In this document: positions 2,287-44,601 of the stretch, piece by piece | Layout: the number at the start of each line of letters is the position of its first letter | How positions within the stretch are numbered: the first letter of the stretch is position 1 | The notes under the pieces: model-generated | The model's database searches: none | Told to the model about the DNA's origin: nothing | The model's input: only the letters and a program-made list of their open reading frames with translations | Sequence record: MH494197.1 | Length of the DNA: 64,000 nucleotides | Source: Escherichia phage CMSTMSU | Strand: one strand, 5' to 3' | Program-made: the position numbers and the translations under genes

Positions 2287-2302
2287 GTAAATAAAGATAT
2301 AC
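2287..2302 (+). promoter_or_regulatory. late-promoter-like motif GTAAATAAAGATATAC
   Basis: Resembles the CTAAATA..GTATA motif found upstream of the fibre and tube genes; lies about 25 nt upstream of the ATG at 2326. Confidence 0.3.
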
Positions 2303-2325
2303 CCGATTTATTTTGGAGACAAACA

Positions 2326-3812
2326 TGGCATATAGAATGTGGAAAAAGGTAGAACCAATGATTACAAGTTCATTGACTCTGCCATAGCAGAACAATACAA
2401 CATCGGTGGTGTTGACATGTGGCTTTATGCCTATGTCGGACCAAAACAAGTCGCTGATAACACTGATTTATCATATGGCGGTGATTATTATGGATCAGAT
2501 AGTACCGTTGTGTCAAGCATTGGTGATTTAATTTTGGTGACACTCCAAGTCGTAACTATAATCTCGAAGCTATCACCTTAAGTTGCGTCTACCAAGTCCA
2601 AGAAGCAACTCCTGACTTGAAAATCCCGATTGTTCTTCAACTTTAACACTATGGACATCACAATTCATTATAACACAATGATTCAGCGTTTGGGAAGAAA
2701 AATTATGCCGTGACGTAATCGAACTTCCTAACTTACGTGATTTTGATGTACTTGGTAAAGATTCTGGTTTAAACCGCTTCTATGTAGTACAAGATGGGTT
2801 TAGAACGTCAGAAGGTTACTCAGTTACATGGCAACATCACATTTACAAACTCCGTGTTAAACCTCTTACTGATTCACCAGAGTACTCTGACCTTCTAGGT
2901 AACAATAACTACCCTGATGACCCAGATGATCCAAACAACGGCAATGGTAATACTGATGATGGCTCTTCAGAGAACAGCAGCTATGGTAATGAAATGGATA
3001 TTATGAACCGTATCATTATGCAAGCTGATGATGAAGTACCATACATTCATTTTACTAACGAACACTTGTTCGATGACAGACCAGATACTGTTGATTTGTC
3101 TAAGTATATGCTAAATGGATACGAATTACCAGAGGAACCAGCAAATAAAATGTATTTCCTCAAGAAAACTTACCCAGTACTGAAAGAACTATCTAATGAT
3201 ACATGGATTTCTGTAGAAGTCAAGCGTGGAACAATCTTTCCTCGCAAACCGATGGATGGTGACTTCTTCTTTAAAGAAAACGAGGCTGATGTCACTGGCT
3301 TCTCATTGTATCAATACGATAAATCTGCCAAAAGTGGCTAAATTGTGATGTTGAGTATACTACAGAAAGCACACCACCACAAGGGGTTGATGATTTTTAT
3401 ATTGAATACAAAGAACCACACATTTATCAGTACTTAAATGGTAAATGGGGAGAACCAGAAGTAACTTACGTTAATGACCCATTCACTTCTAATAGTGTTT
3501 ATGGAAATATCGATTCACAACAAGATTATCGTCCTAAGATTCCTCCAGCACGAGGTACAGTTCCTGAAGGTAACATGTTCCCAAGTGATGCAGTTGATGG
3601 TGATTACTACTATCGTACCGATTATACACCAGTAACCCTATGGGAATACAGTGCGTCCAAGAATTCTTGGGTGATTTTCGATTACGGTGGTAGAAAACCG
3701 TGGAAGGTGCAGATCTTGCTCTAACAGAATTTGTTAATAGCCCGAACCGTGTGCCATTACATGATGCAGTTAAACCTAATACAGTGTATCGTATACATAA
3801 GGATTCAGAATG
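2326..3812 (+). CDS. hypothetical virion (baseplate/tail?) protein, about 495 aa, frame broken
   Basis: Same-strand ORF pieces (2339-2581, 2994-3341 and unlisted frames between) read as one protein with an Asp/Pro/Gly-rich linker; stop overlaps the next start as ATGA at 3810. Function not recognised. Confidence 0.4.
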
Positions 3813-5132
3813 AAAATAGATTATTATTATGATGGTCAATTTCGTCGAGTACTGAAACATCTTATCAGAGTGTTTGGTGAATTTCAAGTACAAAATGGTG
3901 TTGATGCTGACGGAAAACCAAAATATAAGAAAGTTCCTTGCCGCTATGCAGATATTTCACGTATGGCAGCAGCAATTATTAATGGTAACAGTGAGAACGT
4001 GCTTCCAACAGCACCAATCATGACCATTAGTGTAAACCAACTTAAACTAGATCGCAAGTCAGTTCGTTCAAACGCAAATGAAACATTGGTTATGGGGACT
4101 AACAAGTCCCGAATTAACGAATATACTAAAGACTTAGATAAACAGTATAAAGTAACTCGTCATAACCCAGTACCTTGGACATTTACTTTTGATGTTAATA
4201 TTTGGGTTACACAAACACAAACCAAAATGGAACTATTTGAGCAAATTTCAACATTGTTTGCTCCTAGTATTCAATTACAACTCTCCGAGAACCCATTGGA
4301 TTGGACATCATTGAGTGATGTGGAGTTAATTGACTGTCAATTTACTACTCGTGGTTTCCCACAAGGAACCGATAGTGATTTGGATATAATGATTTTGACA
4401 TTTGAAACAACAATTTGGTTCTCTTTGCCAGCTATTGTTGAGAAACCAAAACTTATTCAACAAATTACCACCAATATTAAAGGTGCTCGTGATGAACTTG
4501 ATTTTGAAATTGGTAATTACTCGGATATCATTACTGATGTATTCACACCAAAGAACTTATGTATTAAAGTTGATGAAATAACAAACTCTGAACTTAATAT
4601 TCCAGATACTTACCAACTCACTCTTGTTAGTCAATCACTATCAGAAACATCACCAAATGGTGGAATTTATTCATGGGAAAAATACCTTAAGTACTTGGAC
4701 CCAGAATATGAAGACAAGACGGTTGGTATCAAATTCCAACAAGCTATAGAAGAGGACAACCCACTAAAAGGACACATCTCTTCATTTGGTGAAGGTGCTG
4801 AATCTAACAAGATTGTAGTTCAGCTTGATAATAGTAATTATACTGTTGATTATACAATACATGGATTCATTAGTAAAAGCTCTTTGTTATATAACGCACT
4901 GCCTGAACAATATTATGTAAATAATAGCATACATAACATCATTTACAAAGAGACTGAAATCCCAGCGAACTATTTGTTTAAAATTACCAATGATGGAGCA
5001 GAACTTATTGAGCCATCACTAGTACACAACTATGTTTATAATATGGAAGATAGTGGATATTATAGATATAATGACAAATTCAAATGGCATAAGAGTATTA
5101 TGTCAGTATATCGTCAGGGTATTGGAAAATAA
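3810..5132 (+). CDS. hypothetical protein, 440 aa, probably structural
   Basis: Intact 440-aa ORF translationally coupled to the upstream gene inside the structural block; no motif recognised. Confidence 0.55.
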   Translation: MKIDYYYDGQFRRVLKHLIRVFGEFQVQNGVDADGKPKYKKVPCRYADISRMAAAIINGNSENVLPTAPIMTISVNQLKLDRKSVRSNANETLVMGTNKSRINEYTKDLDKQYKVTRHNPVPWTFTFDVNIWVTQTQTKMELFEQISTLFAPSIQLQLSENPLDWTSLSDVELIDCQFTTRGFPQGTDSDLDIMILTFETTIWFSLPAIVEKPKLIQQITTNIKGARDELDFEIGNYSDIITDVFTPKNLCIKVDEITNSELNIPDTYQLTLVSQSLSETSPNGGIYSWEKYLKYLDPEYEDKTVGIKFQQAIEEDNPLKGHISSFGEGAESNKIVVQLDNSNYTVDYTIHGFISKSSLLYNALPEQYYVNNSIHNIIYKETEIPANYLFKITNDGAELIEPSLVHNYVYNMEDSGYYRYNDKFKWHKSIMSVYRQGIGK

Positions 5133-5161
5133 CTTTCACTGACAAATAAGGAGGTGTTGTT

Positions 5162-5623
5162 ATGAATGAAGCAGTAGGTGCTATATTTTTATCTAAAAGT
5201 ACTGGACATATGATGTTAAACTTGAGATCAGAAAGAAGTACGTATTCTAACAACTGGGCATTTGTTGGTGGGAAGCTTGAGTATAATGAAACTCCGTTAC
5301 AGGGTCTTATGCGTGAGATTAAAGAAGAGCTAGGTGATTCTATTCCAACGATAATAGATATTATACCATTTGATGTATTCTGTACGAAGAATGGTAAATT
5401 TAAATATTATTCATTTGTCATTGTAGTTGAAAATGAATTCGTACCTACTTTAAATCATGAGAGTTCGGGTTATGCATGGGTTAAGATTGGCTCATGGCCC
5501 AAACCATTACATCCGTGCAAAAACACATTACTTAACACAAATTTAATGAAGGATTTCTATTCATTGTGGGAAAGTATACGACAAGGTACACAGTTTGTCA
5601 ACAGCTTACCATATCGATATTAA
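5162..5623 (+). CDS. NUDIX hydrolase
   Basis: Nudix box GGKLEYNETPLQGLMREIKEELG (GX5EX7REUXEEXGU); RBS AAGGAGG 8 nt upstream. Confidence 0.75.
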   Translation: MNEAVGAIFLSKSTGHMMLNLRSERSTYSNNWAFVGGKLEYNETPLQGLMREIKEELGDSIPTIIDIIPFDVFCTKNGKFKYYSFVIVVENEFVPTLNHESSGYAWVKIGSWPKPLHPCKNTLLNTNLMKDFYSLWESIRQGTQFVNSLPYRY

Positions 5624-5625
5624 TA

Positions 5626-5655
5626 AAAAGGAGCCAATGGCTCCTTTTTCTTTAT
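5626..5655. terminator. bidirectional intrinsic terminator hairpin between convergent genes
   Basis: aaaaaGGAGCCaatGGCTCCtttttc: GC stem flanked by A-run and T-run. Confidence 0.5.
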
Positions 5656-6746: not shown

Positions 6747-6951
6747 TCATCACCTTATTATTGTAGTTGGACACGAACTGTGTATTTGATTTGCAAAACA
6801 CGGTTAGCACTTTTCTCAACTGGGTGAAAAATAATATGGGTAAGTGGAATACCGCTATCACCATTTGTATATAAACCCAATTCGTCAAATACATATGTCC
6901 CATCCATGCTAGTACCAGAGCTAACACCTTGGTCAGATGGCTCACCTAAAC

Positions 6952-7364: not shown

Positions 7365-7408
7365 TTCTAATCCTTAGTAGTTAATTAAAATTTGTTCTAA
7401 CTTACCAG

Positions 7409-7870
7409 CTAAACTTTTTGTACATCAGATGGATACTTGCTAATGTAATCACGGTCAATACCGACTTTCAGATAGGTAAAGTTTCCGGTTAAGGTTTCAG
7501 CGAATGTACCAGTTGTACCTTGTTCTCTAATAAGGTCACCGCCATTTGGGTTAAGAATGACATTATCAGTAAATTCAAGATAGAAGTTGCAGCTTTCGGT
7601 AAATTTAATTGGGAACCAATCATCGTCAGATGGATTACTTGCCAGTGTAGCGAGTACGTAAATTCTACCAATGAAGTTACGTAGGGTAAAGGATATTGTA
7701 TGTAATCCTGTAGTACTACCATAATAGCCGCCACTAGCTAATGGTAATGTTTGTTCGTTCCAATGATAATCTAAGTTAGCAGGATACCAGCTATCTGATT
7801 CAGGAAATTCTTGCCATGAACCATCTTTAGTTTTTCTTTTGAAGAGGAAGTCTTTTGATCTTAATGCCAT
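7409..7870 (-). CDS. hypothetical structural protein, 153 aa
   Basis: ORF with RBS-like AAAAGGG upstream; divergent from the 7980 gene. Confidence 0.4.
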   Translation of the reverse strand: MALRSKDFLFKRKTKDGSWQEFPESDSWYPANLDYHWNEQTLPLASGGYYGSTTGLHTISFTLRNFIGRIYVLATLASNPSDDDWFPIKFTESCNFYLEFTDNVILNPNGGDLIREQGTTGTFAETLTGNFTYLKVGIDRDYISKYPSDVQKV

Positions 7871-7935
7871 TGTTAAGCCCTTTTAGTAGTGAACTTTCAT
7901 TTATTTATTAATGGCAACGAAATGTATTTTGTACT

Positions 7936-7955
7936 GATAAATATTGGTATATGAC
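7936..7955 (+). promoter_or_regulatory. late-promoter-like motif TGATAAATATTGGTATATGA
   Basis: Shares the (C/G)TAAATA..GTATAT core with the fibre-gene upstream motifs; 25-45 nt upstream of ATG 7980. Confidence 0.3.
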
Positions 7956-7979
7956 ATTAACTCATACAAGGGAAATATT

Positions 7980-9105
7980 ATGACAATTTCATTCAACAAT
8001 GGGTCAGGTGGTTCATGTAATAATTCTGGCATCAAAAGTTTAGTTATTAACGCTGCTGGACATTTAATTGTAACCTATTCCGACAATACAATCCAAGACC
8101 TAGGTCTAGTGGTTGGACAAAATGGTGCTAACGGTAGAAACTTTTATCCAAATGAGATAGGTTTTGAAGTTCCTAATGAACTCTTCCGTGTTGGTGAAGA
8201 ACTAGGGTGGTGTTATCTTAGTCTTGCAAACGGCACTAGTACTTTATATTTTAAATCAAACGATGCCCAAGAAACAATTAGTACTTGGAACCGTGTAGAG
8301 TTTGGTAAAGGTGATACTGGTGAAGCTGGTAAACCATTCCACATTGACAGTTCTGGTACGGCGTTTCCAACAACTGGTCTTTTCGATAATTACACATTCT
8401 ATAATACTGAAGATGGTAAATTATATTTCTATCAAAGCGTAACTGCAACATGGAGTGATGGTATTCCTTTCCGTGGTGAACAAGGTCTACGTGGTCGTTT
8501 CCATATTGATAGTACTGGTAGTCAATTCCCAAGCATTGATAATCTACCACAAGATTATTGCTTCTATAACACGACAGATGGTAATTTGTATTATGTCGAT
8601 ATCGTAACTACATCATCAACCCCAACTAAAGAGTGGAGTGCTGGTATCTTATTCCGTGGAAAAGACGGTGAAGAAGGTAAGCAAGGTGAACAAGGTATTC
8701 AGGGTGAACGGTAAAGATACAGTTGTTATCATCAACACTATTGATCATTCATGGACTAACGCATTGTTAGTTATTGGTACATGCCCTGCTGGATACCTAG
8801 TAACTAATATCGAAGTTGATATTAACCAAGCATATGATGAACCAGTAAATGAAATGTTTGTACGTTTCGGTGGTGAAGCACAAGAAGATATTGGTGGTAC
8901 TGTAATTGCACCTGTTGATTATTTCGATATCAACCGCAAAATGCGTTACATTGTTAACGAAACCAACCACGAAGTATCAAGTAAAGATGAAATCATTTCT
9001 TGTGTATTCAATGATTCCGTAAACAACAGTTCATTTGGTGAAATGAAGATCGTTTGTACTTTATCATGGCAAGCACCTATTCAGCCTATTCAAGATAACA
9101 TTTAA
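7980..9105 (+). CDS. fibre protein with collagen-like Gly-X-Y stretch and internal ~50-aa tandem repeat (one frameshift near 8700)
   Basis: GKDGEEGKQGEQGIQGER Gly-X-Y run; repeated block HIDSSGTAFPTTGLFDNYTFYNTEDGKLYFY / HIDSTGSQFPSIDNLPQDYCFYNTTDGNLYYV; ORFs 7944-8714 and 8638-9105 overlap in different frames. Confidence 0.55.
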
Positions 9106-12205: not shown

Positions 12206-12226
12206 ACTAAATATATGTATATTAAC
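12206..12226 (+). promoter_or_regulatory. late-promoter-like motif ACTAAATATATGTATATTAAC
   Basis: Near-identical motif at 17281-17300 upstream of the paralogous fibre gene; 46 nt upstream of ATG 12272. Confidence 0.4.
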
Positions 12227-12271: not shown

Positions 12272-15200
12272 ATGTACTCGATTAAAACAGATCTAGATAT
12301 AACTGGTGGTGCAACGGTTGGTAAAGATCTTCTTGTGAAAGGCGATGCAGTATTCAATAAAAATCTAACAGTTAATGGAACTGTAACTTTTGCTGACGCT
12401 GTATTCACTGCAATTGAAGCAGGAACTGTAGACATTTCATCTACACTAGATGTTGCTGGTAAAGCATCATTGAATGGTGGAATTGAAGTTCATGGTAATT
12501 CCGTAATTGGTAATTTGCCTGTTGGCTCTGATACTGCAACGATTAATTCTAATGCACAATTCCAAAGCCCAGTATCAATGGCAGGTAACCTAACACAAAC
12601 CGCTGGCACTGCTGTACTAAAAGATACCCAAGTGGCATCAATGGATGTTCTTGGAACTTCTTCATTTAAAGGTAATATTACTGCTGAAACTGGCACTACC
12701 GCAGCATTTGACAAAATAACTGCAACTGATGCAACATTCACAAACACTGCAACTACTGATATCACATCAACTGGAACTGCAAACTTTAAAGATGTGAATA
12801 TTTCCGGTACACTAGGTGGAACATTTAGTCTATCTGATGTTAATGCAACAACTCTAACTGTTTCTGGTTTAACCAGTCTACAAGGTGGTGTTACATTAGG
12901 TTCCAACATTACTGGTGTGAATAGTAGTGCAAACTTCCGTGATATTAAAATTGGTTCCAATGCTGCAAACACTAACTACCGTTTGAGCTTTAACTATTCT
13001 GCTCCAAGTCTTCGCCCAACTGTAATTCTACAGAACGAAATCCAATCAGAATTGATGTCTCCAGCTACCCTAAGTGTATTGAAAACTGCATCTTTTGGTG
13101 ATTCGTCATTATCCACTTTTGGTATTACTGGTAATGGTCTAAACAAACTAGATTACCTAACAGTATCTGGTAACTCTGTTCAAGATCCAGCAACTCCACT
13201 ATTACAAGTAACTTCAGGTAAAACTAAAGTTCATGATTTCGAAGTAACAGGAACTGCAACTATTCCTAACATTGAAAGTACTGGTACTGCTAATTTTAAT
13301 AACATCAACGTATCTGGTACACTCGGCGGTACTTTCAGTCTTGATGATATTGAAGCAAACACTCTAACTGTTTCTGGATTAACTAGCCTTGTTGGTGGTG
13401 TAACTTTAGGTGCTGATATTTCCGGTGCTAATAGTACTGCTAATTTTAAAGCAGTAAGTTTAGGACAAAACGCAGCCGATGCTAACGTTAAGTATGGTTT
13501 TGCTTATTCTGCCCGGTGCTCGTCCAACTGTAATTCTACAAAATGAAATTCAGTCTGAACTAGTATCTCCAGCAGTACTAAATGTACAAAAACTGCTACC
13601 TTTGGTGATGCATCTCTTGCAACCTATGGTATCACAGGTAACGGTCTAAACAAACTAGATTATCTATCTATTACTGGTAATGGTACACAAAGTCCAGCTA
13701 CCCCACAACTACAAGTAGCTGGTAAATCAGTACTAAATGATGTTGAATTCACTGGTACTGTAACTGGTCTAACTGTTGATGTGAGTGGACAAGATCTAAC
13801 TCCTAAATCAGTAGTTGCTGCTGAAGCAATCAAAGGTCAAACCCTTGAATCAGTTGGTCAAACCACCGTAGGAACTAACCTACAAGTTGGTGGAACTGCT
13901 AATGTTGTTGGTGCACTAACTGGTACTGCTGCTACCTTCACTGGTGATGTAAGTGCTGCTAAAGGTACTTTCAGTGGTGATGTTAGCGTTACTGGTCAAA
14001 CTGTAACTGTACGTGATTTAGTAGTAACTGGTACAACTACTGGTGTAACTGCCCAAGCTGATGTTGATGGTCTTGATATCGCCCCAAATAAAGTTGATGT
14101 TACAACAACACTATCTGTTGCTGGGGACACTACTTTAGCTGGCCTAACTGCTAGTTCAGTAACCAGTACTGGTGATGTTACTGGTGCGTCTGTATCTGGT
14201 AATACAGTAACTGCGGCTGGTGCACTATCTGGTGGTTCTCTTGCAGTAACTGGTGCTGGTTCTATGGCTTCACTAACTGTTCCAAGTATTACTGGTGACA
14301 CTACTTTTGCTAATAACGTAACTATTACTGGAACACTAACTCCGAGTAGTATAGATTTAAGCACTACTGATGTAAGTGCTGCTTCTTTAACAACTACTGG
14401 TAACGTAACTGTTGGTGGTTCTCTTGCAGTAACTGGTGCTATTGATTTGTCTGCTGCTGATGTAGTAACAAAATCAGTTAGTGCAACTAACCCAAGTACA
14501 TTTGGTGTAATTAATGCATCTTCTGTTGTCGCAACTGGTGACGTTTCAGGTGGCACTCTAACTACTACTGGTGCAGCGAAAGTAGGAACACTAACTAGTA
14601 CTGGTGTAGTATCTGGTTCGCGTTTGTCTTCTGGTACTGCAACAATCTCAACTTCTGTAACAGTTCCAACTTTACAAGCTGAAGCTGCTGGTGCTGGTAC
14701 ACTAAATCTAGCAAGTAATGTTGTCGCGGCAAAGATCTAACTGTCACTGGTGTATTCAAACCTGAAGGTGGTCTTGACCTAACAACTGTTGATATTACTG
14801 CAAACTCACTAACTACTACTGCTGATGTTAATGTTGGTGGAAACTTAGTAGTTGATGGTACTTTTGACCTAAGTGCTGCTGATGTGTCTGTGAAATCTCT
14901 TGCAAGTGCAGAGACAATTACAAGTGCTGGTGTTATTACCGTTACCGATTCAACCAATACTAGTTCGTTACCTAAAATTACTTCAACTGATGCAACACTC
15001 TTTACAGTAAATGCAGGTACTATTAATGCAACTGGCAACAGTGTACTACAAAGTGTATCAGCTACTCAAGTAACTGCAACTAGTGCTGAATTGACTGGTG
15101 TTGGTCTTGGTCTTCAAGTCGATAATGATGCAAACGTTGGTGGTGCATTATCTGTTGGTGGAATCGCAACTGTTGGTTCTTTAACAACAACTGCTGCTTC

Positions 15201-17201
15201 TCTTAATATTGCAAAAATACTGCAATCACTGGTGATTTAGCTGTATCTGGCACACTAACTGCTGGTTCAATCGACCTAAGCAATACTGATGTAACCGTTA
15301 AATCTCTTGATTCACTAGGTAACGCACACATTGCTGGTGACCTAACTGTAGATGGTGCATTCGACTTAAGTGCAACTAACCTTGTAGCTGCAAGTCTAGC
15401 AAGTACTGGTTCTACTACTGTTGGAACTGATCTAGTACTAACAACTGGTGTTGTGACTGGTAGCCCAGCTATCTCTGGTAATACAACAATCGGTGGAACT
15501 CTTGGTGTAACTGGTGCTGTTAACCTAACTGATATTGTTAATATCGGTAAGAAAGTAACAGTGAGTACTGGTGGTATTCAGGTAGTTGATGGTGGTATCA
15601 ATACTAACACAATTAACGTTTCTGGTGCTTCTACTCTAGCAGGAACTTCCATTACTGGAACTTTAGGTGTAACTGGTGCTTCTACTCTAGCAGGTGTATC
15701 TGCGACATCACTAACAGTTTCTGGTGACAGTACTGTTCAGAAACTAACTGTCCAAGGTGAATTGATCCCACAAGGTGGTCTTGACCTAAGCGGTGCAGAC
15801 ATTACTGCTAATAGTCTAACTACTGCAACAACTATCAATGCAACTGGCCTAAGTACTCTAAGTGGTGGTGTTAGTACTTCTACTGTGACTGCATCTGGTC
15901 TAGCAACTGTTGGAAGTTTAACTTCTACTGCAAACGCATCAGTTGGTGGCAATTTGGGTGTAACTGGAACTCTAGATGTTACTGGTGCTACTACTGTATC
16001 TTCACTAACAGCTACTGGTGCAGTGAAAACTGGCACAACCCTAACTGTTGGTACTCCAGTTGGTGAACAACCTGAAACTGTACAGATCATTCCAGATACT
16101 TATATTGCTGGTAAATTGCGTGTAATCGGCGGTATTAACGCTGAAATCGACGTAAGTGGTCAAACACTAGAACCATATGCAATTGAAGCTGCTGCAACAC
16201 TATCTGCTGTTGGTAACATTACTTCTGGTGCAACCATCGTTTCTAAAGCTGCAACAATTGGTGATGTTGGTTCACAAAACAACAACCTAACTGTTAATGG
16301 TAACGTAGTAACTAATGGTGACTTCACCGTTACTGGTGTACTAAATGCACAATTGAACCAAGCAGATTCCGATGTAGCTGTTAAATCTTTAACTGCAACT
16401 AATAACGTTGCGGCTGGTACTTCAATCACTGCTGGAACATCCATCACTGCATCAGGCTTACTAAAAGGTAATTCGTTAGAAGTCACCACTACTGGTTCAT
16501 TTGGTGGTGCAGTAACTATGTCAAGTGGTGCAAACATCACTGGTACTGTTGGTATCACTGCTGGTGACCTAACAGTAGGTGGTAATATCTCTGCAACTGG
16601 GACTGCTGGATTCGGTGCAACAACCGTTTCTACCATTACAACATCAGGTTTAGCTACACTTGCAAGTGCATCTGTAACTGGTGCTCTAACTGTAGGTGGT
16701 ACATTAACTGCAAATGGTAACACTGTGATTGGTGATGCTGCTGCTGATACTTTAACTGTAAATGCAACATCGACATTTAAAGAGAACGCAACATTTGATA
16801 AGAACCTAACAGTGACTGGTTCTATTAACACCACCACTGCAAACTTCACCACAAACAACATGGTAACTAAGAAATATTCTGTTATCCCTGCTAGTGTTAC
16901 TGCTTCTACTGCTGCTGTAGGTGGTACTTGGACACCAGATGGTACTACTAACGTATATCGCTTAACTCTTGACCAAAGTGTTACAATGGATTCCATCGCG
17001 GGTCTAATTGGTAGTGGTCAAGCATGTTCAGTGTATATCTATGTAACTCCATCTGTTGCTGATACTACTTTCACCTTCGGTGGTGCATACTCTGTAGTTT
17101 CTGGTACAGTAAGTGCTGTAGTTGGTCAAACAAGTATTATCCAAGTAATCTATGATGGTTTCAGTACTGTGTTTGATACCTTCGTTGCACAACGTGTATA
17201 A
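12272..17201 (+). CDS. giant tail fibre protein 1 (about 1640 aa; Thr/Gly/Ser/Val-rich repeats; several frameshifts)
   Basis: Same-strand ORFs 12272-13546, 13781-14740, 14884-15240, 15453-17201 with in-phase unlisted segments between; repeated LTVSG/VTGT motifs; C-terminal tip ...VYIYVTPSVADTTF...VIYDGFSTVFDTFVAQRV; RBS GGAGGGA. Confidence 0.7.
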
Positions 17202-17280: not shown

Positions 17281-17300
17281 CTAAATATAAGTATATTAAC
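17281..17300 (+). promoter_or_regulatory. late-promoter-like motif CTAAATATAAGTATATTAAC
   Basis: Matches 12206-12226. Confidence 0.4.
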
Positions 17301-17347
17301 AAAAGATGGGTTATGAATATATAGTTCATCGTTATAGGAGGGACTCT

Positions 17348-23936: not shown

Positions 23937-23982
23937 CTAAAATAAATACTTAATATATAATCTATTCTGAGGAAATATTTAA

Positions 23983-25943
23983 ATGAGTATAAATCGAATT
24001 AGAGGTGATGGTGGTGTAATTATAGATAGTCAGGCATTTCTAGAATTACCTAAAGCACCGACTAAAGAAACCGCTGATGTGGTTAGATCAGGGATGATTA
24101 GATACAATAAAGGATGGAAAGCATTTGAAGGTGTACTAGACTTTGAAGATGGTTCAATGGCATATCGACGTTTTGCAAACCTAGATGCAAACGGTAAACT
24201 TCTTACTTCCCAATTACCAGATTCAGTAACTAGTGGTTTACAATTTGTTGGTACATATAATCCCATCCCAGATGATATCGATCCACCTTTAGCACAAACT
24301 CCACTACCAGCACCATCACCATCGCTTAATGGTGATTATTATGTCGTTCGTGGTATAATGGATGCCGCACAAGCACATTATGAAGCAAATAATCCACAAA
24401 CAAGTCCTGTTACATTTACACCTACAAATCCAACTGGACAAGGTAATTGGATTGAAATTTTATATTATGTTGACTCTAATCCAAATATATCTGGTGCTAA
24501 ACTAGTAACATACGCTTTTGCTAGAATTATTACTGCATCTATTCCCAGTACTGGACATGATGGCCTTGAAAATTTAGCAACAGATACTGACTTGACCAAA
24601 CCATTTGCATCTGGTGTTCCAATGAACCAAACTGCACTTTCAGATGGCGATTGGATTATTATAACTGAAGATAAGAATATACGTCTTCGTCAGTCAAGAA
24701 CAAGCATTTCCGCTGCTTCAGTATTATATGACAATACTGTAATGATTGCAAATCATCGTCAATTTAGAACAAACGCAGGGACCGTTCAAACATCCATAGA
24801 TAACGTTGTGATTGAGTGTTTACGTAGAACTGGCGATTCCATGTATAATGATGGAACAGACGGCTCTGGGCGTTTTGGGGTGGTGTATGGCAGTGCAGCA
24901 GCACCAGCATTGACATTTAATAATAATCCGTTTGACCCAACGAACAACCCGTAATGACCCAACTAAGTGGTCCGATGCTAATACTGGTATATTCCATCCA
25001 GCAGATGATGCAATTGGTTTTACAACAGCCGGAACTGAGCGTGTTCGAATTAATAATGGAACACTAACATTATTCCAAACTACCGCTACACCAGCAGCTA
25101 CGCCAGTAATACGTTTTGATAATGCATCAAACACAAACGTAGGGATAAGTGCAAGTAGTAATATTATTTCTTTAAGTTCAATGAATAAAATTCAAGTTGA
25201 ATTTAAAAATGGTGAATCACATTTTCATGGAAATATTATTGTAGATGGATCAACATCACTAACAGGTGATTTAAACGCAGGTAACATCACTGCCAGCGGA
25301 ATTTAGTTGTTAAAGGTAATACAACACTAGGCGACACTACTGGCGACACTATTACAGTTAATGGTGTTAGTACTTATAATGCAAATACTAATTTCAATGG
25401 AACTAATAACAAATTCAAAACATAAACTTACTAGAGAATGGTGTATTCACATTAGAAAGTACTACAAACCAAAGTGATATAAAACTACTTGGTGCAGACT
25501 TACGTTTCACTATGGGAAGTTATGCTGATGTAAGTATATATGATAACGGTGTTATTCGTACTCGTTTCAACCGATATGGTATTCAATTACCAGTACTGGC
25601 TACAATTGATAACTCAGTTGGTGTTGATGGTATGATTGCATACTCAAATACCGAACGTACATCGATGCAGAAGGTCCAAGGACAATGGGTTCCAATTGGT
25701 TCTGGTTCTGTACGTACTGACCCGTTTACTGCGTCAGCGTGGGTTTTAAACGGCTCATATTACACATTAACAGTAACTGCTAGTAACATAGTAACTGCTG
25801 AAATTCAAGAACTCGTAAGTACTGGTGTTTACACTCGTGTTGAAGTTGATAGTGTCACATTCAATGGAACAAGCGTAGTGTTCAGTATTCCTGCAACTCC
25901 TGATGTGAGATTTGCCGGACGTACACTGGTTACATTAAGATAA
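23983..25943 (+). CDS. fibre-like protein (frame-broken)
   Basis: ORFs 23983-24954, 24932-25306, 25512-25943 on the same strand; Thr/Asn/Gly-rich fibre-like composition (GIFHPADDAIGFTTAGTERVRINNGTL). Confidence 0.45.
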
Positions 25944-28445: not shown

Positions 28446-28475
28446 AGTAGAAACGGAATTTTCCGTTCTCATTAT
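28446..28475 (-). terminator. intrinsic terminator after the VWA-domain gene
   Basis: Minus-strand hairpin AACGGAaaatTCCGTT followed by TCTACTTTTTC. Confidence 0.45.
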
Positions 28476-31977: not shown

Positions 31978-33351
31978 TTACATCCCCACGAAACCCTGTC
32001 TTGCTGCATATGAAGGAGCATCTTTAACTTTATAGTCTTGGACACCATCTTTACCAATTTTCGGACCCATATCTTTGGTTCCGAAGCAGCAATCAGTGGA
32101 TTCATCAACTTCTTCAGTACTTTCATCATTATATCGAACATCCGATAAAATGTCACACGCTTTTGAAGCTTTTCTACGATTTCTTTTGATCTTCACCTGA
32201 TTTAACCTTATCCACAATGTGGATAAGGCATTCGGTGATATCTTTAAGTAAATCGGTGGCAACAGCATCAGAAGGAGTCTCAACTGCAAAACTTTCTTCT
32301 TCAGTAGATTCTTCACTAGAAGTGATTTCATCTAATGCTTCAACCAATTCACGATAATTATATCCCATCTTATTTGTCCCTAGAAATTGTTGATATTTCT
32401 TCTGGAGACTTTCGAAAATGTCTTCGACTTCTTCATCGCTTTCATCTTCTAGTTCTTCGTTACCTTCCACGGACTCATCACTCTCATTAACATTGAGTGG
32501 GTTGTCACCTAGAGCAGTACACGGAAACTTAGGTTCAAATTTGTGAACACGGTTCTCGTTACCGTCATTGTCATAGTACTCTGGTTCAGGACGATTGTCA
32601 ACATCTTCATCAACGACACGTCTCCAGTAGAACTTGTTACCCTTGGTAATAACAACAAAGTGGTCACCTTCTACACCATTAGTTTTAGCTTGACCGTCAC
32701 GAACAGCATCAGCTTCAGTGTTGTAAGGGCCAAAATCAGTACTGTCACCTTGTTCTTCATCTTCAGAGATGGTTAGGTCTGGTAGGAAAGTGTTTTCTTC
32801 AACTTTAACTTCAGTATCTGGGTTACCTTCTACAGAATATTCATCTTCTGGTTCGTCTTGAAGACCAGCTAGAGATAGCATACGACTGAAATCGAATTCT
32901 TCTTCGATGATTTCTTCTTCTTCCTCTTCTTCAACTGATTCTAGTTGAGGTTGACCGGAAAGATCTAAAGAAAACTCTTCTTCATCTGCAACACGGCTCT
33001 TCGAACTCTGCATCCATACTTACTTCTTCAGAATCACCACCAAAATCACCAGCTTCAGCAGATAGTGAGTCAGCAGCAACTTCTAATGGGTCTTCAACAG
33101 GTGCATCAATTGCACCATCCATTGAACCACCAACTTCTTCTTCTGCACCAGCACCAATTGAATCCATATCGAGTGGTGCGATTGGTGTAGAAAGGGTCAT
33201 TGACCCATAGAAGGAACTGGAGCAGCAACAGGAGAAGCTTGACGCTCGGCTTGACCAGCTAGTGCAAGCATACGAGATAGTGTTTCTAGATCTTCAGATT
33301 CTAGTCCTGCGATATCGATTTTAACTTGTGCTTCATTAATTTTTTAGCCAT
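31978..33351 (-). CDS. large highly acidic (Glu/Asp-rich) protein, about 450 aa (frame-broken)
   Basis: ORFs 32982-33200, 32174-33013, 31978-32331 plus N-terminal piece from ATG 33351; runs such as EEEEEEEIIEEEFDF; an A6 run near 33340 breaks the start. Confidence 0.5.
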
Positions 33352-33474
33352 TTTAAATAAATCCTTTTAGTTATCAATCATTCTTATTTAATGATTTTAA
33401 AATTTGCACTGTTTCATCCTTTTTACCAGATAGTAAAATGTCAGCAGCAATTAGAGAAACCTCATCACCACGCG

Positions 33475-34880: not shown

Positions 34881-35079
34881 GATTCTCCTTAAGAAAGCAT
34901 ACGCAAAAGTTGTTCACGCTGCTCTGGACTTAATTTTTGTAGAGCATCAGGATACTAGAACCTTGTGCTTTTGGCTGTTCCTGTGGTGCTGGTTGTGGAG
35001 CATTGTCAGGTTGAGCTTGTGGTGCAGGACGTTGTTGTTCTTCACCTTTATCATCATCACGATAATCATTCATCAAGTC

Positions 35080-35431
35080 ACGTGCTGCTGCCAATAGAGC
35101 AGAACCAACATCTTTAGGAGTAAAAGTACGACGACTGTTATTTCCCGTGTTTTATATCAAGGTTATTTCCTTTGAAGAATTGTGCAACATCAGCATATGG
35201 TACTGATGGCTGTGCTTTACCGTATTTGCGACCAACATAGCGTTTAAATTCAGCCCAAAGACGGTTTGCTTCTGCACCAACTTCTTGTGCACCTTGTTCT
35301 ACTTGACCACTACCGAAAAAGCCTTTTACTTTTCCTTTTGCACTATCTACTGCACTTTGTGAACGACTATATGGACGAGCTTCATTTAGCTCTTCATCAT
35401 TATAGTCTAACATTTCATTAAGTATACTCAT
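35080..35431 (-). CDS. hypothetical protein (Gln/Pro-rich C-terminus)
   Basis: ORF 35138-35431, likely extended by a frameshift. Confidence 0.3.
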
Positions 35432-35960
35432 GTCTCAATCCTTTTACCAAAACCAGCACTCATATATTGAGAGTATTTATTGTCACTTTTAACTGCTTCA
35501 ATCGCATCTTTAACTGCGGTTACAGCACGTTCTTCACCAGCTAAATCATGGCTGTCTTCTGGTTTGCCAAAATCAACACCAATTACTGGTTCGTAATCGT
35601 CAAAGTCAATATCATCTTCGAGTTCGGTCATTTCTTGTTGACGTGGTTCATCTTTACTACGTACACGGATTAGAGCTTCAGTCATACTTAGTAGGTTGCC
35701 AATTTCATACATTAGTACGTTTGATTGAACACCACGGTGGCATTTGAAATCAAACATCCAAATTTCACCACAATCTAATTCATAAAAATCTAGTGGTCTT
35801 TCCATGAAAATAGTTTTCTTTAGTGCACCAATATCAAATGCATCATAACGATCCATTAGGCGTTGTGATACTTTACTTAGTTGCTCATTGGTAGGTTCAA
35901 CTGCAAACTTGACTCGGTATTCAAAACTGGTTTTTATCCGTTAGGATTTGTTGTAATCTA
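35428..35960 (-). CDS. hypothetical protein
   Basis: ORF 35428-35856 with upstream in-phase extension. Confidence 0.35.
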
Positions 35961-35989
35961 TTCATTTTAATAACTCCATAAGGTCGTTT

Positions 35990-36530
35990 AAGTTATTTAT
36001 TTCTGTTCATTGCTGCAAGCATTTCATTGCAGGTTTTATGTGCTACCGCCTGTCCTTCGATGGCTGTTGGGTCACCAACTGATTCAGGTTTCTTAGTTTT
36101 AAGGTTTAGATCGATTTCCATCTTATCTTTCTTGAGTTGAAGATCTACTAATTTAACGTCAGAATCAATGATTTTTGCATGAGCATCGAGAGCAATTTTA
36201 ACATAGAGTTTGCAGCGTTAATCATTTCTGCTGCAAAACGGTCTTCACAGTTGAAAGCACGGTCGAAAATATCTTCAAACTTACGTTCTGCCATCTGTGC
36301 TAAACGATCTAATTGAGTTTTTCTTGCTGTAATATCTGGAAGTTCACGCAACTGAACACGCATAGCTTTCAATTTTTCCATTGCAGCTTTTGCCTCTTCT
36401 AGTGAAATTTCAGTTTCACTCTGTTCATCTTCGTCATCCTGATACAAATCCATCTCTGTATCTTCTTCAGGCTCGGCCTGTCATTTCCATCCATTGTTTA
36501 GCACTAGGTAATCCCAGTGCTTCATCTACT
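35990..36530 (-). CDS. hypothetical acidic coiled-coil-like protein (scaffold-like?)
   Basis: ORF 36148-36453 plus flanking frames; charged helical sequence EEAKAAMEKLKAMRVQLRELPD. Confidence 0.3.
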
Positions 36531-38106: not shown

Positions 38107-38883
38107 TTATAATCCAATGCTACCGAAAACACGGTCAATGATATCTAATCCTTGGTTTACGTTTTCAGGTAAAAGTGAATTTATTCTAGTACTGTACATT
38201 TCTTCGATATTATCGAATTGGATACAATTATCAGGTTTTATTGTAATAACCATTTCAACAGGAGAACTTGAACTATAGTCAAGTGAATCATATGATATAT
38301 TTTGTATAACACATCCTGTTAGTACAAAGTACTCCATAACGCCAGCACTATTGTATGATGATCCACCAATGAACTGATCAACAGCGTTGACTAATCCAGT
38401 ATTGTTGGTAGCGGCAGTTGTTGCATTAACTAATGTGTTTCTTCCCAAGTCTTCTAGTGTATCATCAGAGTTGCGACCATTCAACATCTGAATGACAATT
38501 CCGAACTTATATGAACCATAATCATGGTCAGTTCTGGAAGTAATTCTTCGTTGAAAATCTAATTGTTTCTGTAATTGTCTTGACAAGGCTTTTGCTGATG
38601 CATTACCAACTGAATCACGGATAGTTAAAGTAATTGGGTCCCAATCGTGACTACCAATGTAAGATGTATTTGTTGTAAATTGATATAGTTTATGAGTACT
38701 GAAAGTAACAGTAGGTCTATCAACTTTATCAACATCTAATGCAATGTGATCACGCTCATCTATATCAGTACCGAAATTATATACAATAACACGAAATTTG
38801 TATTTTGCTTTCGGTTGTAACATTGAACGGTTACGTCCTGATGGTAGAGGAACGCCATATTTATTAATCATGTTATTTGCCAT
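38107..38883 (-). CDS. tail tube-like protein (gp19-like), 258 aa
   Basis: Directly downstream of sheath gene; N-terminus KAKYKFRVIVYNFG; C-terminal segment DSLDYSSSSPVEMVITIKPDN resembles the T4 tube C-terminus as I recall it; RBS AAAGAGG. Confidence 0.5.
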   Translation of the reverse strand: MANNMINKYGVPLPSGRNRSMLQPKAKYKFRVIVYNFGTDIDERDHIALDVDKVDRPTVTFSTHKLYQFTTNTSYIGSHDWDPITLTIRDSVGNASAKALSRQLQKQLDFQRRITSRTDHDYGSYKFGIVIQMLNGRNSDDTLEDLGRNTLVNATTAATNNTGLVNAVDQFIGGSSYNSAGVMEYFVLTGCVIQNISYDSLDYSSSSPVEMVITIKPDNCIQFDNIEEMYSTRINSLLPENVNQGLDIIDRVFGSIGL

Positions 38884-38905: not shown

Positions 38906-38925
38906 GGTATTATACTTTATTTAGC
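38906..38925 (-). promoter_or_regulatory. late-promoter-like motif GCTAAATAAAGTATAATACC
   Basis: Same core as the fibre-gene motifs; 23-43 nt upstream of ATG 38883. Confidence 0.4.
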
Positions 38926-38970: not shown

Positions 38971-39655
38971 TTAATTTTCGTAGAAGTTACTATCTGGTAG
39001 AGTAGTACTACTAATGTTGGTTTGTGCACCACTAATAGAGGTAGCAGTGGATGGGTTACCGAAACCAGTAATTTCATCACCGAACGCTTCACCATTAGGA
39101 CCGAGTTTTGCACAGCCGTCTGGTTGAATTGTCATAGAAATAACTTGTGCTTCACTTGAGGAATAATCCCAGTCACCAAAGTTACTAGATTCGATAAAGC
39201 AGCCTTGACATACCCAAGTACTCAAAGTACCTTCAAAAGGTTAGAAGTGTTTTCACTATTGGAGCCATCTAGCTCTTGAATCCACATTTCAAATTTGAAC
39301 TGGGAATCAGTCATACGAGATTCTTGACTGTAATAGTTAAATTCTTTACGCATTTGGTTATAAAGAGCTTTAGCAGAAGCATTACCAACTGAATCACGGA
39401 AAGCCACATCAATAGTATCCCAAGTATACTTACCTTTATAGTGAGCAGAACTGTTATAACTATGCACAGTGACGTTTTCATGTGATACAGATACAGCACC
39501 AACGGTGTTGGTATCTAGGTAATCATATTGCCATCGTCGTTAGCACCGAAGCCAAAGAAAACAACACGGAATTTATATTTTGCTTTAGGTTGTTTCATAG
39601 AGATACGACCACCGCCAGCGAGCGGAACGCCATATCGATCAAGCATTGTAGCCAT
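38971..39655 (-). CDS. tail tube-like paralog (frame-broken)
   Basis: N-terminus MATMLDRYGVPLAGGGRISMKQPKAKYKFRVV and internal RDSVGNASAKAL both match the 38107-38883 protein; RBS CAGGAGAA. Confidence 0.5.
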
Positions 39656-39997
39656 TTATATTCTCCTGTTATGGAATGACATCTTTATATTATTTATCTA
39701 TTACTTACACTTTTATTGAAGTATCTCATCAACAGGAAACCAATCTATATTCACACAATACAAGTACTTTTTCTTGTTTATGATCTGTATAGTTTACACC
39801 AACCGACCATTTACCATTTGTGTAAACATTGTATTCTCGAATTATACCGACAATGTTCCAAATTTTGTATAAAAGCTTTAAGGATTTTACGGCATCGTCC
39901 TGTGTCGCTACAGTTTTACTTACATCTTGTAATGTTTTTAAGTATTTCTTCCATATTATTCCTGATCGTTGAATTAATAACATAACGTATTTAATTT

Positions 39998-40027: not shown

Positions 40028-40033
40028 AGTGTT

Positions 40034-42688
40034 TTATTGAGTCTTTTCAATACGAATAGGTACGTAAATGAAGTTGATAGACTTAGTAGGTTGGATTGCA
40101 ATATCCATCCAAAGTTCGTTACGGTCAATACGTTCAGAAGTGTTGTTACTTTCGTCACAAACTACTGCGAAGTTGTATAGACCTTGTTGTTGAACGATTT
40201 CAGCTAGAAGCTATTCACTACACCACTGAATTCCTGACGAGTACTTGGAGTATTCAAACGGAATAGGAATGGTTCAGAGATGATTTCTAGTTGACGACGA
40301 ATGTAAACAACCAAACGAGCAACGTTAACACGGCTTAGTGCAGAGGTTTGGTTAGCAGATAGTGTTTTATCACCATATACTAGCAAGCCACGGTTAGGAC
40401 GCATTGCAATTGGGTTAATGTTGTTGGTATACATCACGTCACGTTGACCTTGGTTGTATACTACTGGTTGATATTCACCTTCACTGTTAATGAAACCAGT
40501 ACTTGCAGCGTTGGTTACAACACCACGAGTAGTACCAGCAGGTGGATACCATACAAAACTAACACTATCACTGTACGCATAGGTACGCATTGCAACAGTA
40601 CTGCCGGAACCGCTACTTCTTCACCATCAACGTTAGTACTTAGACACCAGCCCATGTACTGAGCAGCATAATCATATGCAGAAGTACGGCCTACTGAACC
40701 ATTACTTGGTGCGTTATTCGCGTTAGTAGCCCATTCTTGAACTGCACTACCGTTTCCGGTTGGGTTCAAACGAGCAGGTACATCAGTTACAATGAACGCT
40801 GTTTCTTTACGATCAGTGTTTAGGGTAATACATTCATCTAGAGTTTCTACATAACCGGAACACAGATTAGGTTGAAGTCGATGAATTCAGAACGGATATC
40901 ATCATTACCGACGATTACAGCAGCTAGTGCTTCAACGATTAGTTTGCGTTGTGCTGCACGACCGAATAGACCTGCACCATCAAGACTAACACCACTAACA
41001 ACTTGCCATTGACCATTAACCATTTTCTTAACAACACCTTCGGTATTACCGAGGTCAATTGCAAGCATACCATTCTGATAAAGAGCAGCAGAAGCAACTT
41101 GTTCAGGGAAGTTAAAGTCAGCGAAAATCATACCGTTTAGAGTACTTTGGTCAGTATTGTCTAGTTTAACCCACTCACCATCAACGTTACGATAGAAATC
41201 ATAACCATCAATGCCTTGAGATAGAGGGCGTACCCAAATTAGGCGGTCAGCCGATGGCTCATCAACTTGAACGTATTTGTTATCTTCTTGTACTAGATCC
41301 CATTCGTCATTTGCAACATCTGCAATGTACATGGTAACAGTTAGGTTATCTGAATTACCGAAATCATACCAAATAGTACCGTCTTTAGCAATACTACGTG
41401 GAACAGAAGAGCTAACACGCAAGTTATTAACGTTAACTAGAGAATAGTTGTTACTATCTACAGTTAGTTTAGCTAGTTCATTCGCTGCAAAAATATCATC
41501 ACCGCTTTGGGTAACTTTAAAGCTATAACCTTTGGTGTTTGTAACTACCAAACCGCCATTAGATTCACGTTTGAATTTGAATCCATCATTGATAAGATCA
41601 GCACTAACATTTAGATTATCGATGATAGTTTGAGTATTAATTACGCCACCTTGTGGTACTGCAAGTACTTTAACAGATTTGTTTAGGTAAGCGAAAGTCA
41701 AATAACTATTTTCACCAGCTTGCTCAATAACAGTTTCACCTAGTGGTACTGCTGGAGCACTAATTGCTGATAGTTTTGCACTTTGAATATAGAAAGAGAA
41801 ACTCTTACTATCGTCATCAAAACGGCAAGCAATATAACTGTTGTTTAGTACACCACTCTTAGCTTCAACTTCTTGGAAAGAATTACCAGTATATGCTGGA
41901 ACGATATTCCAAACTTGAGTTAGAGATGCATAACGTTTTAGAACAAAGCGAGTGCCAAAATAGTTTGAACCATTTTGAGTATAACCATCACGAATCCATA
42001 CGTTACCTTGTTCAACAGTTGAACCAACTGGAACTTTGTTGATTGGTGATAGATAAGTTTCAACCTGTACTAGACCAGATGCTGCACGTTTGTACATAAG
42101 CATTTGACCATTACTTGGCTTATAACGTAGAACTAGATCATCAACGTTTAGACCAACTAGGCTAACATCGTCAACTTCTTCAGAACTTACGATGGTAACA
42201 GGCTTCAATTGCCAGTCATAGAAGCTGCTTGGGCTGTCTTTCTTAGCAACATAAGCTTCAATTTGTGATTGAGCAGCATCAAACCATAGAGTACCATTTG
42301 GTACTGGGCCAGTTGGTGCAGTTGCACTTGGTGATAGTTGAGCCAAATCGATATCAGCACGAATAACATATGCACGGTTGGTGATACCTAGATAAGAATA
42401 TACAGCATGTAGACCATATTCGTTTAGTTCGTCACCTTGAACAACTGAACCATTGTTCATTTGGAAAATTGGTGAGCCAAATGTATCTAGTGAGCTTTTC
42501 TGTGATGTTAGTAGCTGTAGTTTACCAGCGTTTGCTTTAGTGGTTCCGCAGCGATTGCACTGCTACCGGAACAAGTTTGTCTTCAGCAGTAGCGATTACA
42601 AATAGTGGTACTGTGCGAGCAGCAGCAGTACTCATACTTTCATCAGTTACTGAAATGGAAACGCCGGTGAGAGTAGATCTCCTGCCAT
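40034..42688 (-). CDS. tail sheath protein (about 880 aa; frame-broken)
   Basis: N-terminal region resembles the gp18 family (LLSP..., LHAVYSYLGITNRAYVIRA); C-terminus RVNVARLVVYIRRQLE and NELWMDIAIQPTKSINFIY; RBS GGAGG before ATG 42688. Confidence 0.85.
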
Positions 42689-42782
42689 ATTAAATCCTCC
42701 AAAAATAATTGGTTATTCGAATTATATTCGTATAGTCTTATTTATTGAAGGATTTGAATGTCAAGTCCTAATTGTTTTAATT

Positions 42783-43404: not shown

Positions 43405-43422
43405 AATACTTCTCCATGTATA

Positions 43423-43701
43423 TTATATAAGTACTACTAAATCCTTTCCTACTAAACATTCAAGTAATCCAACTATAAACTCACTCCCATAATATATAGT
43501 AACATAAGTGATGTAGAATGTTTCACCATTATCATCACGACATATACTCGCCCACGCGTTTATTCGATCTCTACCGAAAACATCTACGATTGATTCTTTT
43601 ATAAATTTCCAGTTCTTTTCGGTTGATTCATAATCCAATGTAGGTGCTCCACAAGTATATTTGTTATACATTGCATACACTGCATCTATGTTGTTATTCA
43701 T
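43423..43701 (-). CDS. hypothetical protein, 92 aa
   Basis: ORF only. Confidence 0.35.
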   Translation of the reverse strand: MNNNIDAVYAMYNKYTCGAPTLDYESTEKNWKFIKESIVDVFGRDRINAWASICRDDNGETFYITYVTIYYGSEFIVGLLECLVGKDLVVLI

Positions 43702-43744
43702 GTCAGGTTCCTTTAGATTAATATTATCATTATATCACAACATA

Positions 43745-43778
43745 TAAAAAGACCCCATATAGAGTCTTTTTTGTTTTA
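43745..43778 (-). terminator. hairpin with U-tracts on both strands (likely bidirectional terminator)
   Basis: aaaaAGACcccatatagaGTCTtttttgtttt. Confidence 0.4.
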
Positions 43779-43789
43779 TCCGATAATCA

Positions 43790-44563
43790 TTCCAAGTGGA
43801 TCACCACCATCTTTGTATCTCTTCAACTGTTCTTTAAGCTGTTCTTGAAGTTGTGCACCTTCATTACGTAATGTATCACCATCCATAGAGAATGTACCCT
43901 GTGGTCCGCAATGTAGCAAATTTAGCACGGTTGCGACCCAACATAATCATAGCTTCAGACAATGCCCAGTCACGTAGCCAAGGATAGCTTTGTTGACGTT
44001 GGAATAGCAATGGTTCAGGTATATTATGATATACATGTAATAGCACTTCTTCAGTACCACGAATATCACGGTCAATTATTAGTTTTTGGTCATTGGGTTG
44101 AACTGGAAGATGATTTCTCTACCAAACATACGCCCAACTAATTCTTGGAACTGAAAACTAAAATCATAAGTAGTTAAGTCATAACCACCAGCGTTACGTG
44201 CAGACGTTAAAAGGTAAGTGTTGGTAAATGCGAGTGAAAAAGGGTCTACTGAGTTACCACTTCCAGAACTTAGATAACCGTTACCATAACGATAAATCTG
44301 TTTGACAATTTCAACTTCAGTAGGGAGCATGTATACAGATTGTGAATCATAGAATTTCATGTTCAAGAATGCTTCTTCTTTGAAGCAGAACTCCATGCTC
44401 GGTAGTTTGATACCGCATTATCAATTGCAATTTCCAATTGACCATCAGTAATTTCAACTTCAACTGCACCAGCACCTAACATTTGAGTGATAACATCTTT
44501 CAGTTTTTCACGATGATCAAAGTTTGGAGCATCTGGGTTTCCACCCATATAATCGTAAGACAT
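43790..44563 (-). CDS. hypothetical late protein (frame-broken)
   Basis: ORFs 44363-44593 and 44079-44396; RBS GAGGTG; preceded by a late-type motif. Confidence 0.4.
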
Positions 44564-44581
44564 AAAAAGCACCTCATTAAT

Positions 44582-44601
44582 GTTTATATACATTATTTAG
44601 A
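44582..44601 (-). promoter_or_regulatory. late-promoter-like motif CTAAATAATGTATATAAACA
   Basis: Closest match to the fibre-gene motif CTAAATATATGTATATTAAC. Confidence 0.4.

Follow-up and report, generated by a model that had tools for sequence, protein, structure and literature searches.

Genes and sequence of the window

The window analysed here comprises 64,000 nucleotides of Escherichia phage CMSTMSU (sequence record MH494197.1), and the element in question is a short motif with the core TAAATA, which recurs upstream of structural genes and very probably marks T4-type late promoters. According to megablast, the window is DNA of a Rak2-like jumbo coliphage of the Asteriusvirus type. Over the window length, it is 98.6-99.0% identical to Escherichia phages fEgEco12, WPEC5, EC.P1, WPEC3, vB_Ec-M-J and BF17, ~86% identical to phAPEC6, PBECO4, 121Q and G17, and ~70% identical to RaK2, CBB, GAP32 and Eneladusvirus phages. 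The left 26 kb contain tail and fibre genes on the plus strand, the region from 26 to 45 kb contains minus-strand structural genes including those for tube, sheath and neck, and the region from 45 to 64 kb is occupied mostly by small non-structural genes.

Relative to WPEC3, the window has 273 small deletions (e.g. at 163, 589, 2628, 4111 and 13515), because of which long genes such as those of the fibres and the sheath look like broken open reading frames (ORFs). Hence, the WPEC3 gene map was transferred to window coordinates. Homopolymer runs contain 184 of the deletions, and 43 adjoin CCWGG, a sequence with 48 sites in the matching WPEC3 stretch and none in the window; a Dcm methyltransferase is encoded by the phage. 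Judged from the sequence, the pattern resembles an unpolished nanopore assembly of Dcm-methylated DNA. For genome-wide tests, positions 1-328,000 of WPEC3 (of 384 kb) were assembled and 588 genes were called, which match the annotation where the two were compared (213-246 kb stretch). Two segments of the window are absent from WPEC3, namely 49504-50461 (~960 bp) and 57151-57785 (~630 bp); their ORFs (49706-50089 and 57204-57824, both minus strand) gave no match in Pfam.

Recurrence of the motif and the genes preceded by it

A reading made from the letters of the window alone (the sequence-only reading) had proposed a recurrent CTAAATA..GTATA motif upstream of six structural genes as a candidate late promoter. 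All six sites were present where it had placed them, each with a TAAATA core, and all six are the same in the clean WPEC3 sequence, so that the sequencing errors of the window leave them untouched. The pattern TAAATA-N2-3-GTATA matches five times in the window, compared to 0.38 ± 0.58 matches in shuffled sequences, and none of 100 shuffles reached five. Each of these five matches is intergenic, lies on the strand of the next gene and is found 30-60 nt before the start of a structural gene; the sixth site, at 2288, reads TAAATA-AA-GATATAC and is outside the composite matches. The two fibre sites (12208 and 17282) are near-identical copies resulting from gene duplication and, therefore, not independent. 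At least eleven further window sites of the same kind had been overlooked (Table 1). The genes served in the window are those starting at 2325, 7870 (minus strand), 7980 (tail protein) and 23983, both fibre genes, three minus-strand virion genes, two tube genes, and the sheath, neck and Rz-like spanin genes.

Motif discovery on upstream regions, which had been suggested as a check, was conducted as an unbiased k-mer enrichment in all sense-oriented upstream non-coding DNA of WPEC3; TAAATA ranked first among the 6-mers and ATAAATA first among the 7-mers. The motif is associated with a gene class: TAAATA precedes 23 of 49 annotated structural or lysis genes and 12 of 16 RCC1-like paralogues in WPEC3, compared to 36 of 527 other genes (odds ratio 12, p = 2e-12). 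Restricted to genes whose upstream non-coding DNA spans 40 nt or more, the numbers are 16/20 structural genes and 23/203 others. Such a placement, in sense orientation and shortly upstream of late (virion, morphogenesis and lysis) genes, is that of T4-type late promoters. Outside the window, TAAATA sites were found before the genes of the major head protein and the prohead protease, baseplate genes and an endonuclease VII (gp49) homologue.

Position, orientation and avoidance

In WPEC3, 72 of 175 TAAATA copies (41%) are located at -70 to -15 from start codons, a zone which makes up 5.0% of the two-strand sequence, and distances of 20-49 nt to the start codon are the most frequent. The same -70 to -15 zones contain six antisense copies as opposed to the 72 in sense orientation (p = 2e-15). 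The fourteen other hexamers of the composition A4T2 have 6.5-13% of their copies in this zone.

TAAATA is, moreover, the rarest of the A4T2 hexamers in WPEC3, with 175 copies compared to 445-540 expected from Markov models. In the window, 38 copies were counted where 91 ± 9 were expected, and 18 of the 38 are located within 60 nt sense-upstream of a gene start. An equal frequency inside coding sequence, which had been named as an argument against a promoter, was not seen: on the sense strand of coding sequences, 50 copies compare to ~130 expected (2.6-fold depletion) and on the antisense strand 18 copies to ~160 expected (9-fold depletion), while control hexamers show no depletion there. Avoidance on the non-transcribed strand is the expectation for a short, self-sufficient promoter element and argues against a signal in the mRNA; the avoidance of TAAATA is a signature at the DNA level. 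With a weight matrix for which only sites outside the window region had served as training set, 17 matches were obtained in the window, compared to 33 ± 5.5 in shuffled sequences, and 11 of the 17 sit 10-70 nt upstream of a gene.

Core, flanks and start region

For the flanks of the core, 45 non-redundant sites were examined genome-wide. The core is preceded by A in 25, C in 10, G in 6 and T in 4 of them, and CTAAATA is not enriched in the window (12 copies, 15.6 expected). Hence, of the proposed CTAAATA core, the TAAATA part holds, but the leading C is a minority base at a position where A is preferred. Further upstream nothing is conserved, positions -15 to -2 relative to the core having at most 0.28 bit each; a single -10-type element with TAAATA and no conserved -35 is also the structure of a T4-type late promoter.

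Downstream, the base 6 nt after the core is A in 27, G in 9, T in 9 and C in none of the sites, i.e. a purine in 36/45. A TATA stretch 2-5 nt after the core occurs in 36% of the 45 sites, compared to 6% of other TAAATA copies. T4 late promoters carry TATAAATA at -13 to -6 (PMC1524935), and T4's own TATAAATA sites in 66 kb of T4 DNA (n = 19) were used for comparison. Their base 6 nt downstream is A in 11, G in 5, T in 3 and C in no case (purine 16/19), and 6/19 (32%) have a TATA stretch. Since T4's element occupies -13 to -6, the purine falls at the expected +1 and (G)TATA straddles the start point. The GTATA half of the proposed motif is, thus, present, but it varies across genera and TATA follows the T4 sites at the same rate, for which reason it was rejected as a second recognition element; from its sequence, it appears to be an AT-rich initiation region.

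The full TATAAATA occurs nine times in the 328 kb of WPEC3, eight times sense-upstream of genes, and is missing from the window where 6.9 copies were expected. This absence was considered as a sign against T4-type promoters and dismissed, as it reflects the general avoidance of TAAATA.

Conservation across phages

TAAATA is invariant and in register before the orthologues of the genes tube2, tube3, sheath and neck in G17, RaK2, CBB and GAP32, which represent three genera, while the flanks diverge. In these genera, the core is followed, after 1-4 nt, by TATAAT, GATAAA, TATACA or TATACG. Nine window sites were checked in G17, and all of them are kept there.

Sigma factors and co-activators

In T4, late promoters are read by gp55 together with gp33 and the gp45 sliding clamp. 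A search for homologues, likewise suggested by the sequence-only reading, was successful for gp55 but not, among the 588 WPEC3 proteins searched, for gp33. The genome encodes a sigma factor of the gp55 family, as expected of a phage with T4-type late promoters: in the near-identical genomes, its gene lies ~21 kb left of the window (CDS382 of WPEC3, 191,439-192,377, minus strand) and adjoins a gp47 homologue, as in T4. Compared to T4 gp55, an alpha/beta domain of ~125 residues without a recognisable relative is inserted after the first helix. The true start is probably Met34, because the first 35 residues have a low pLDDT (predicted local distance difference test) in the model and the family length is ~286 amino acids. 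The gp55-like protein had no match in Pfam or NCBIfam, a single-sequence phmmer search against the PDB returned noise only, and the sigma family shows no resemblance to gp33.

Genes adjoining the gp44 clamp loader gene were considered as clamp candidates and rejected, none of them being a clamp; they belong to unrelated PHROGs or encode virion proteins. DsbA and RpbA were also not found in pairwise searches of the 588 WPEC3 proteins (1-328 of 384 kb). Published analyses of RaK2 and CBB did not find gp45 either (PMC3622015, PMC5259590), and group-2 jumbo phages in general have gp33 orthologues according to Iyer et al. (PMC7824862).

Interpretation of the sites

Very probably, the TAAATA...TATA sites serve a Rak2-like jumbo coliphage as late promoters of the T4 type, read by a gp55-related phage sigma. 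Each of the computational tests which the sequence-only reading had proposed for a gp55-type late promoter (motif discovery, comparison with coding sequence and search for a gp55 homologue) supports this, while no gp33 or gp45 homologue was found among the WPEC3 proteins searched. The motif, its position and orientation, the gene-class association, the conservation across genera, the genome-wide avoidance, and the presence and homology of the sigma factor were observed directly; the reading of the motif by this sigma, the start point, the late timing and the effect of the hairpins described below are what we infer. Late in infection, the gp55-related sigma would replace sigma-70 on the host RNA polymerase core. 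Its only recognition sequence, of the -10 type, would be (a/c)TAAATA, located around -12 to -6, without a -35 counterpart. The purine ~6 nt further on, within the AT-rich stretch (G)TATA, would be the first transcribed base. A typical unit would consist of a terminator hairpin, TAAATA, a leader of ~30 nt with a Shine-Dalgarno sequence (SD), and the ATG of a structural, morphogenesis or lysis gene.

Several observations weigh against this interpretation. Promoter activity and late timing are themselves inferred, and neither transcript 5' end mapping nor expression timing for the phage group was found in the literature. Roughly every second annotated structural gene lacks its own TAAATA, presumably being located within an operon. 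There are also TAAATA copies which are not promoters, e.g. the one at 28473 and those inside sigma-70-type spacers at WPEC3 87700 and 89352. The gp55 gene is located outside the window itself, and its product lacks the C-terminal LDFL clamp-binding tail which ends both T4 gp55 and T4 gp33. Homologues of gp33, gp45 and gp62 were not detected with T4 queries in phmmer searches of the 588 WPEC3 proteins (none below E = 0.05), where such pairwise searches may miss distant homologues. With neither these proteins nor the tail found, the T4 activation mechanism is not simply transferable. Finally, the phage also encodes an RpoD-like sigma (coding sequence 182 of WPEC3, CDS182; regions 2 and 3), which is a possible reader of the motif.

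The last point leads to a different explanation, in which the promoters are read by the RpoD-like sigma or by host sigma-70, with (G)TATAAT or TATATT as the -10 hexamer and TAAATA as spacer or extended element. Besides the sigma-70-family sigma encoded by the phage, a good TATAAT 3 nt after TAAATA at several sites, including the RCC1-like array and a tube gene, speaks for it, and GTATAAT itself is enriched upstream of genes. However, it is TAAATA which is invariant across genera, while the downstream stretch varies in sequence and spacing (1-4 nt), and in TATACG, TATAAAG and GATAAA the T which is essential at the end of a -10 hexamer is missing. The two hexamers of a sigma-70-type promoter (-35 TTGACA, spacer of 16-18 nt, -10 TATAAT) are not found at the sites: conservation at -35 is below 0.3 bit, and sigma-70-like matches between 36 and 46 kb are at chance level (35, compared to 37.6 ± 6.8 expected), none coinciding with a TAAATA site. 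The downstream AT-rich pattern is, furthermore, shared by the gp55-dependent promoters of T4. We therefore consider this explanation improbable.

A signal acting at the level of RNA, in the mRNA leaders of structural genes, with a role in processing, stability or translation enhancement, would account for the fairly fixed distance of 20-49 nt to the start codons and for motifs which are sometimes embedded in conserved RNA hairpins. Yet the strongest avoidance concerns the antisense strand of genes, which is part of no mRNA, the motif often stands directly after a terminator, and in the hairpins its place is the loop, immediately behind the anti-SD arm, an arrangement known from late promoters of T4 (PMC3014915). 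A cognate sigma is also present, and a leader signal in place of a promoter is very improbable. The chance that the motif is a functionless compositional feature is next to nil: intergenic DNA is rich in AT and CTAAATA by itself shows no enrichment, but composition-matched hexamers behave differently, the orientation bias is 72 to 6, and TAAATA is conserved across genera, tied to a gene class and avoided elsewhere, statistics by which a chance origin is already refuted.

For T4-type late promoters read by the gp55-related sigma, the point of interest is an extra domain in a gp55-type sigma combined with no recognisable gp33 or sliding clamp. Tentatively, Rak2-like jumbo phages might have T4-type late promoters without the replication-coupled activation of T4, the inserted domain or another partner replacing co-activator and clamp, so that the late sigma would be minimal and self-sufficient. 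A sigma firing at any copy of the hexamer would be in line with the extreme avoidance of TAAATA. We regard this proposal as possible, but rather unlikely.

Individual sites in the window

The TAAATA cores of the window are listed in Table 1.

Table 1. TAAATA cores in the window and the genes downstream of them. Cited, site named in the sequence-only reading; further, site overlooked by it; PWM, position weight matrix.
Core	Strand	Sequence	Listing	Distance to start (nt)	Gene	Remarks
2288..2293	+		cited	31	virion structural gene at 2325	identical in G17
7902..7907	-		further	31	gene 7374-7870 (minus strand)	PWM score 13.0 bits
7938..7943	+	GATAAATATTGGTATAT	cited	36	tail protein gene at 7980	
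12208..12213	+	CTAAATATATGTATATT	cited	58	tail fibre gene 1, ATG at 12272	terminator hairpin upstream
17282..17287	+	CTAAATATAAGTATATT	cited	60	tail fibre gene 2 (17348)	paralogous copy of 12208
23943..23948	+		further	34	gene at 23983 (654 amino acids)	terminator hairpin upstream
33385..33390	-		further	33	virion structural gene 32369-33351	inside 3' end of upstream gene
35474..35479	-		further	42	gene 34889-35431	inside 3' end of upstream gene
35994..35999	-		further	28	virion structural gene 35435-35965	
38918..38923	-	CTAAATAAAGTATAAT	cited	34	tail tube gene 38107-38883	kept in G17, RaK2, CBB and GAP32
39691..39696	-		further	35	tail tube gene 38971-39655	13.3 bits
39988..39993	-		further	33	small ORF 39811-39954	directly after terminator hairpin 40027-40008
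42739..42744	-		further	50	tail sheath gene 40034-42688	
44594..44599	-	CTAAATAATGTATATA	cited	30	neck/adaptor gene 43776-44563	
46351..46356	-		further	46	hypothetical gene 46063-46304	weaker candidate
58296..58301	-		further	27	DUF5856 gene 57830-58268	weaker candidate
61520..61525	-	CTCTAAATAATATTACC	further	27	Rz-like spanin gene 61120-61492	

In the divergent intergenic region 7871-7979, the sites at 7902 and 7938 stand back-to-back before genes on opposite strands. Both sites overlap with a small ORF of the WPEC3 annotation (7901-7996 in window coordinates, minus strand), which is probably no genuine gene. The fibre genes, 12272-17201 and 17348-23050, are large paralogues, 72-84% identical in parts and with near-identical promoter regions; the corresponding place in G17 is occupied by a single fibre gene. 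The start of fibre gene 2 at 17348 is preceded by an SD; an in-frame ATG at 17306 lies 18 nt after the core at 17282. The tube gene site at 38918 stands directly after a terminator hairpin (38954-38931). The spanin gene is a lysis gene and, therefore, a late gene. The gene 57830-58268 is annotated as 'starvation-inducible transcriptional regulator' in WPEC3, which was not upheld, since only Pfam DUF5856 matches (1e-27).

Outside the window, WPEC3 27,280-47,580 contains an array of ~16 RCC1-like paralogues, most of which own a near-identical promoter copy (tTAAATAtagtataatgaataaaggagg) behind a terminator. The right, non-structural part of the window contains sigma-70-looking promoters at 51895-51951, 47236-47344 and 59296-59399 (all minus strand) of the form TTGAYA-N17-(G)ATATAAT or TATACT, which probably belong to an early or middle class distinct from the TAAATA class.

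Hairpins around probable promoters and ribosome-binding sites

At three window sites, those of gene 2325, the sheath gene and the neck gene, the promoter is found in the loop of a hairpin, the upstream arm of which pairs with the ribosome-binding site or the start region. The arms of the hairpin at gene 2325 are 2274-2280 and 2318-2324 (plus strand), the 3' arm being located between SD and ATG (z = -2.7). For the sheath gene (minus strand), an anti-SD arm at 42745-42756, just upstream of the core, pairs with the SD arm at 42692-42702; all five phages retain this stem of 13 bp. The hairpin of the neck gene (minus strand) is formed by GCACCTC (44600-44606) and GAGGTGC (44569-44575) and sequesters the SD; this stem is kept across genera with an exchange of U-A to C-G. 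Masking of the ribosome-binding site as a general property of the promoters was rejected: a free energy (dG) ≤ -8 kcal/mol was reached by 16 of 58 sites, compared to 12.5 expected, and only four sites stand out.

In T4, the late promoters of the genes e, soc, 49 and I-TevI are located inside hairpins masking the ribosome-binding site (PMC3014915). Of these, e, soc and 49 are translated from late transcripts only. By analogy, the masking arm would be absent from transcripts which start at the late promoters of gene 2325, sheath and neck, and only those transcripts would be translatable.

Comparison with known systems

The sites resemble the late promoters of T4 in having a single short A/T-rich -10-type element with the common core TAAATA and no -35, a purine 6 nt downstream and an AT-rich start region, and in their location before structural and lysis genes. 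Additionally, the homologous sigma gene adjoins genes gp46/47, and some promoters lie inside hairpins masking the ribosome-binding site (PMC3014915). In contrast to T4, the first two positions are relaxed, with A preferred over C at -12 and nothing conserved at -13, and the full TATAAATA is as rare as stated above (9 times in 328 kb, 0 in the window). The sigma differs by its insertion of ~125 amino acids and the missing LDFL tail, and homologues of gp33, gp45 and gp62 were not found in the WPEC3 proteins searched.

Among T4 relatives, the late promoter of Aeromonas phage Aeh1 is CTAAATA, and RB49, KVP40 and S-PM2 use NATAAATA (Nolan et al. 2006, PMC1524935). Hence, distant relatives of T4 also relax or change the first positions and keep TAAATA. 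The C at -12 of Aeh1 is found in 10/45 sites here, but A is the commonest base at this position, and the motif is not a fixed CTAAATA of the Aeh1 type.

The closest precedent is phage CBB, in which MEME detected ATAAATA, followed by an A/T-rich stretch, in front of structural genes at 35 positions (Buttimer et al. 2017, PMC5259590). The same authors noted the motif in GAP32, likened it to TATAAATA of T4, and reported a gp55-like gene for CBB and GAP32, but no gp33 or gp45 (PMC5259590); a prediction of ATAAATA late promoters by Abbasifar et al. 2014 is cited there. Neither the kind of element nor its occurrence in this phage group is, thus, new. In the open papers found on fEgEco12 and Sharanji, both relatives among the coliphages, no promoter analysis is given. 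CBB and GAP32 share with the window the phage group, the consensus, the A/T-rich downstream stretch and the position before structural genes, and their orthologous sites align with the tube, sheath and neck sites of the window. Their predictions differ in that they were obtained by MEME on structural-gene upstream regions of other genera; hexamer avoidance, orientation statistics, the purine at the start site and the hairpin architecture are added here. With nothing new in kind, the late-promoter prediction published for CBB and GAP32 is extended to the coliphage members, and the late transcription units of the phage group can be annotated, which in the window are those of the fibre, tail, tube, sheath, neck and spanin genes.

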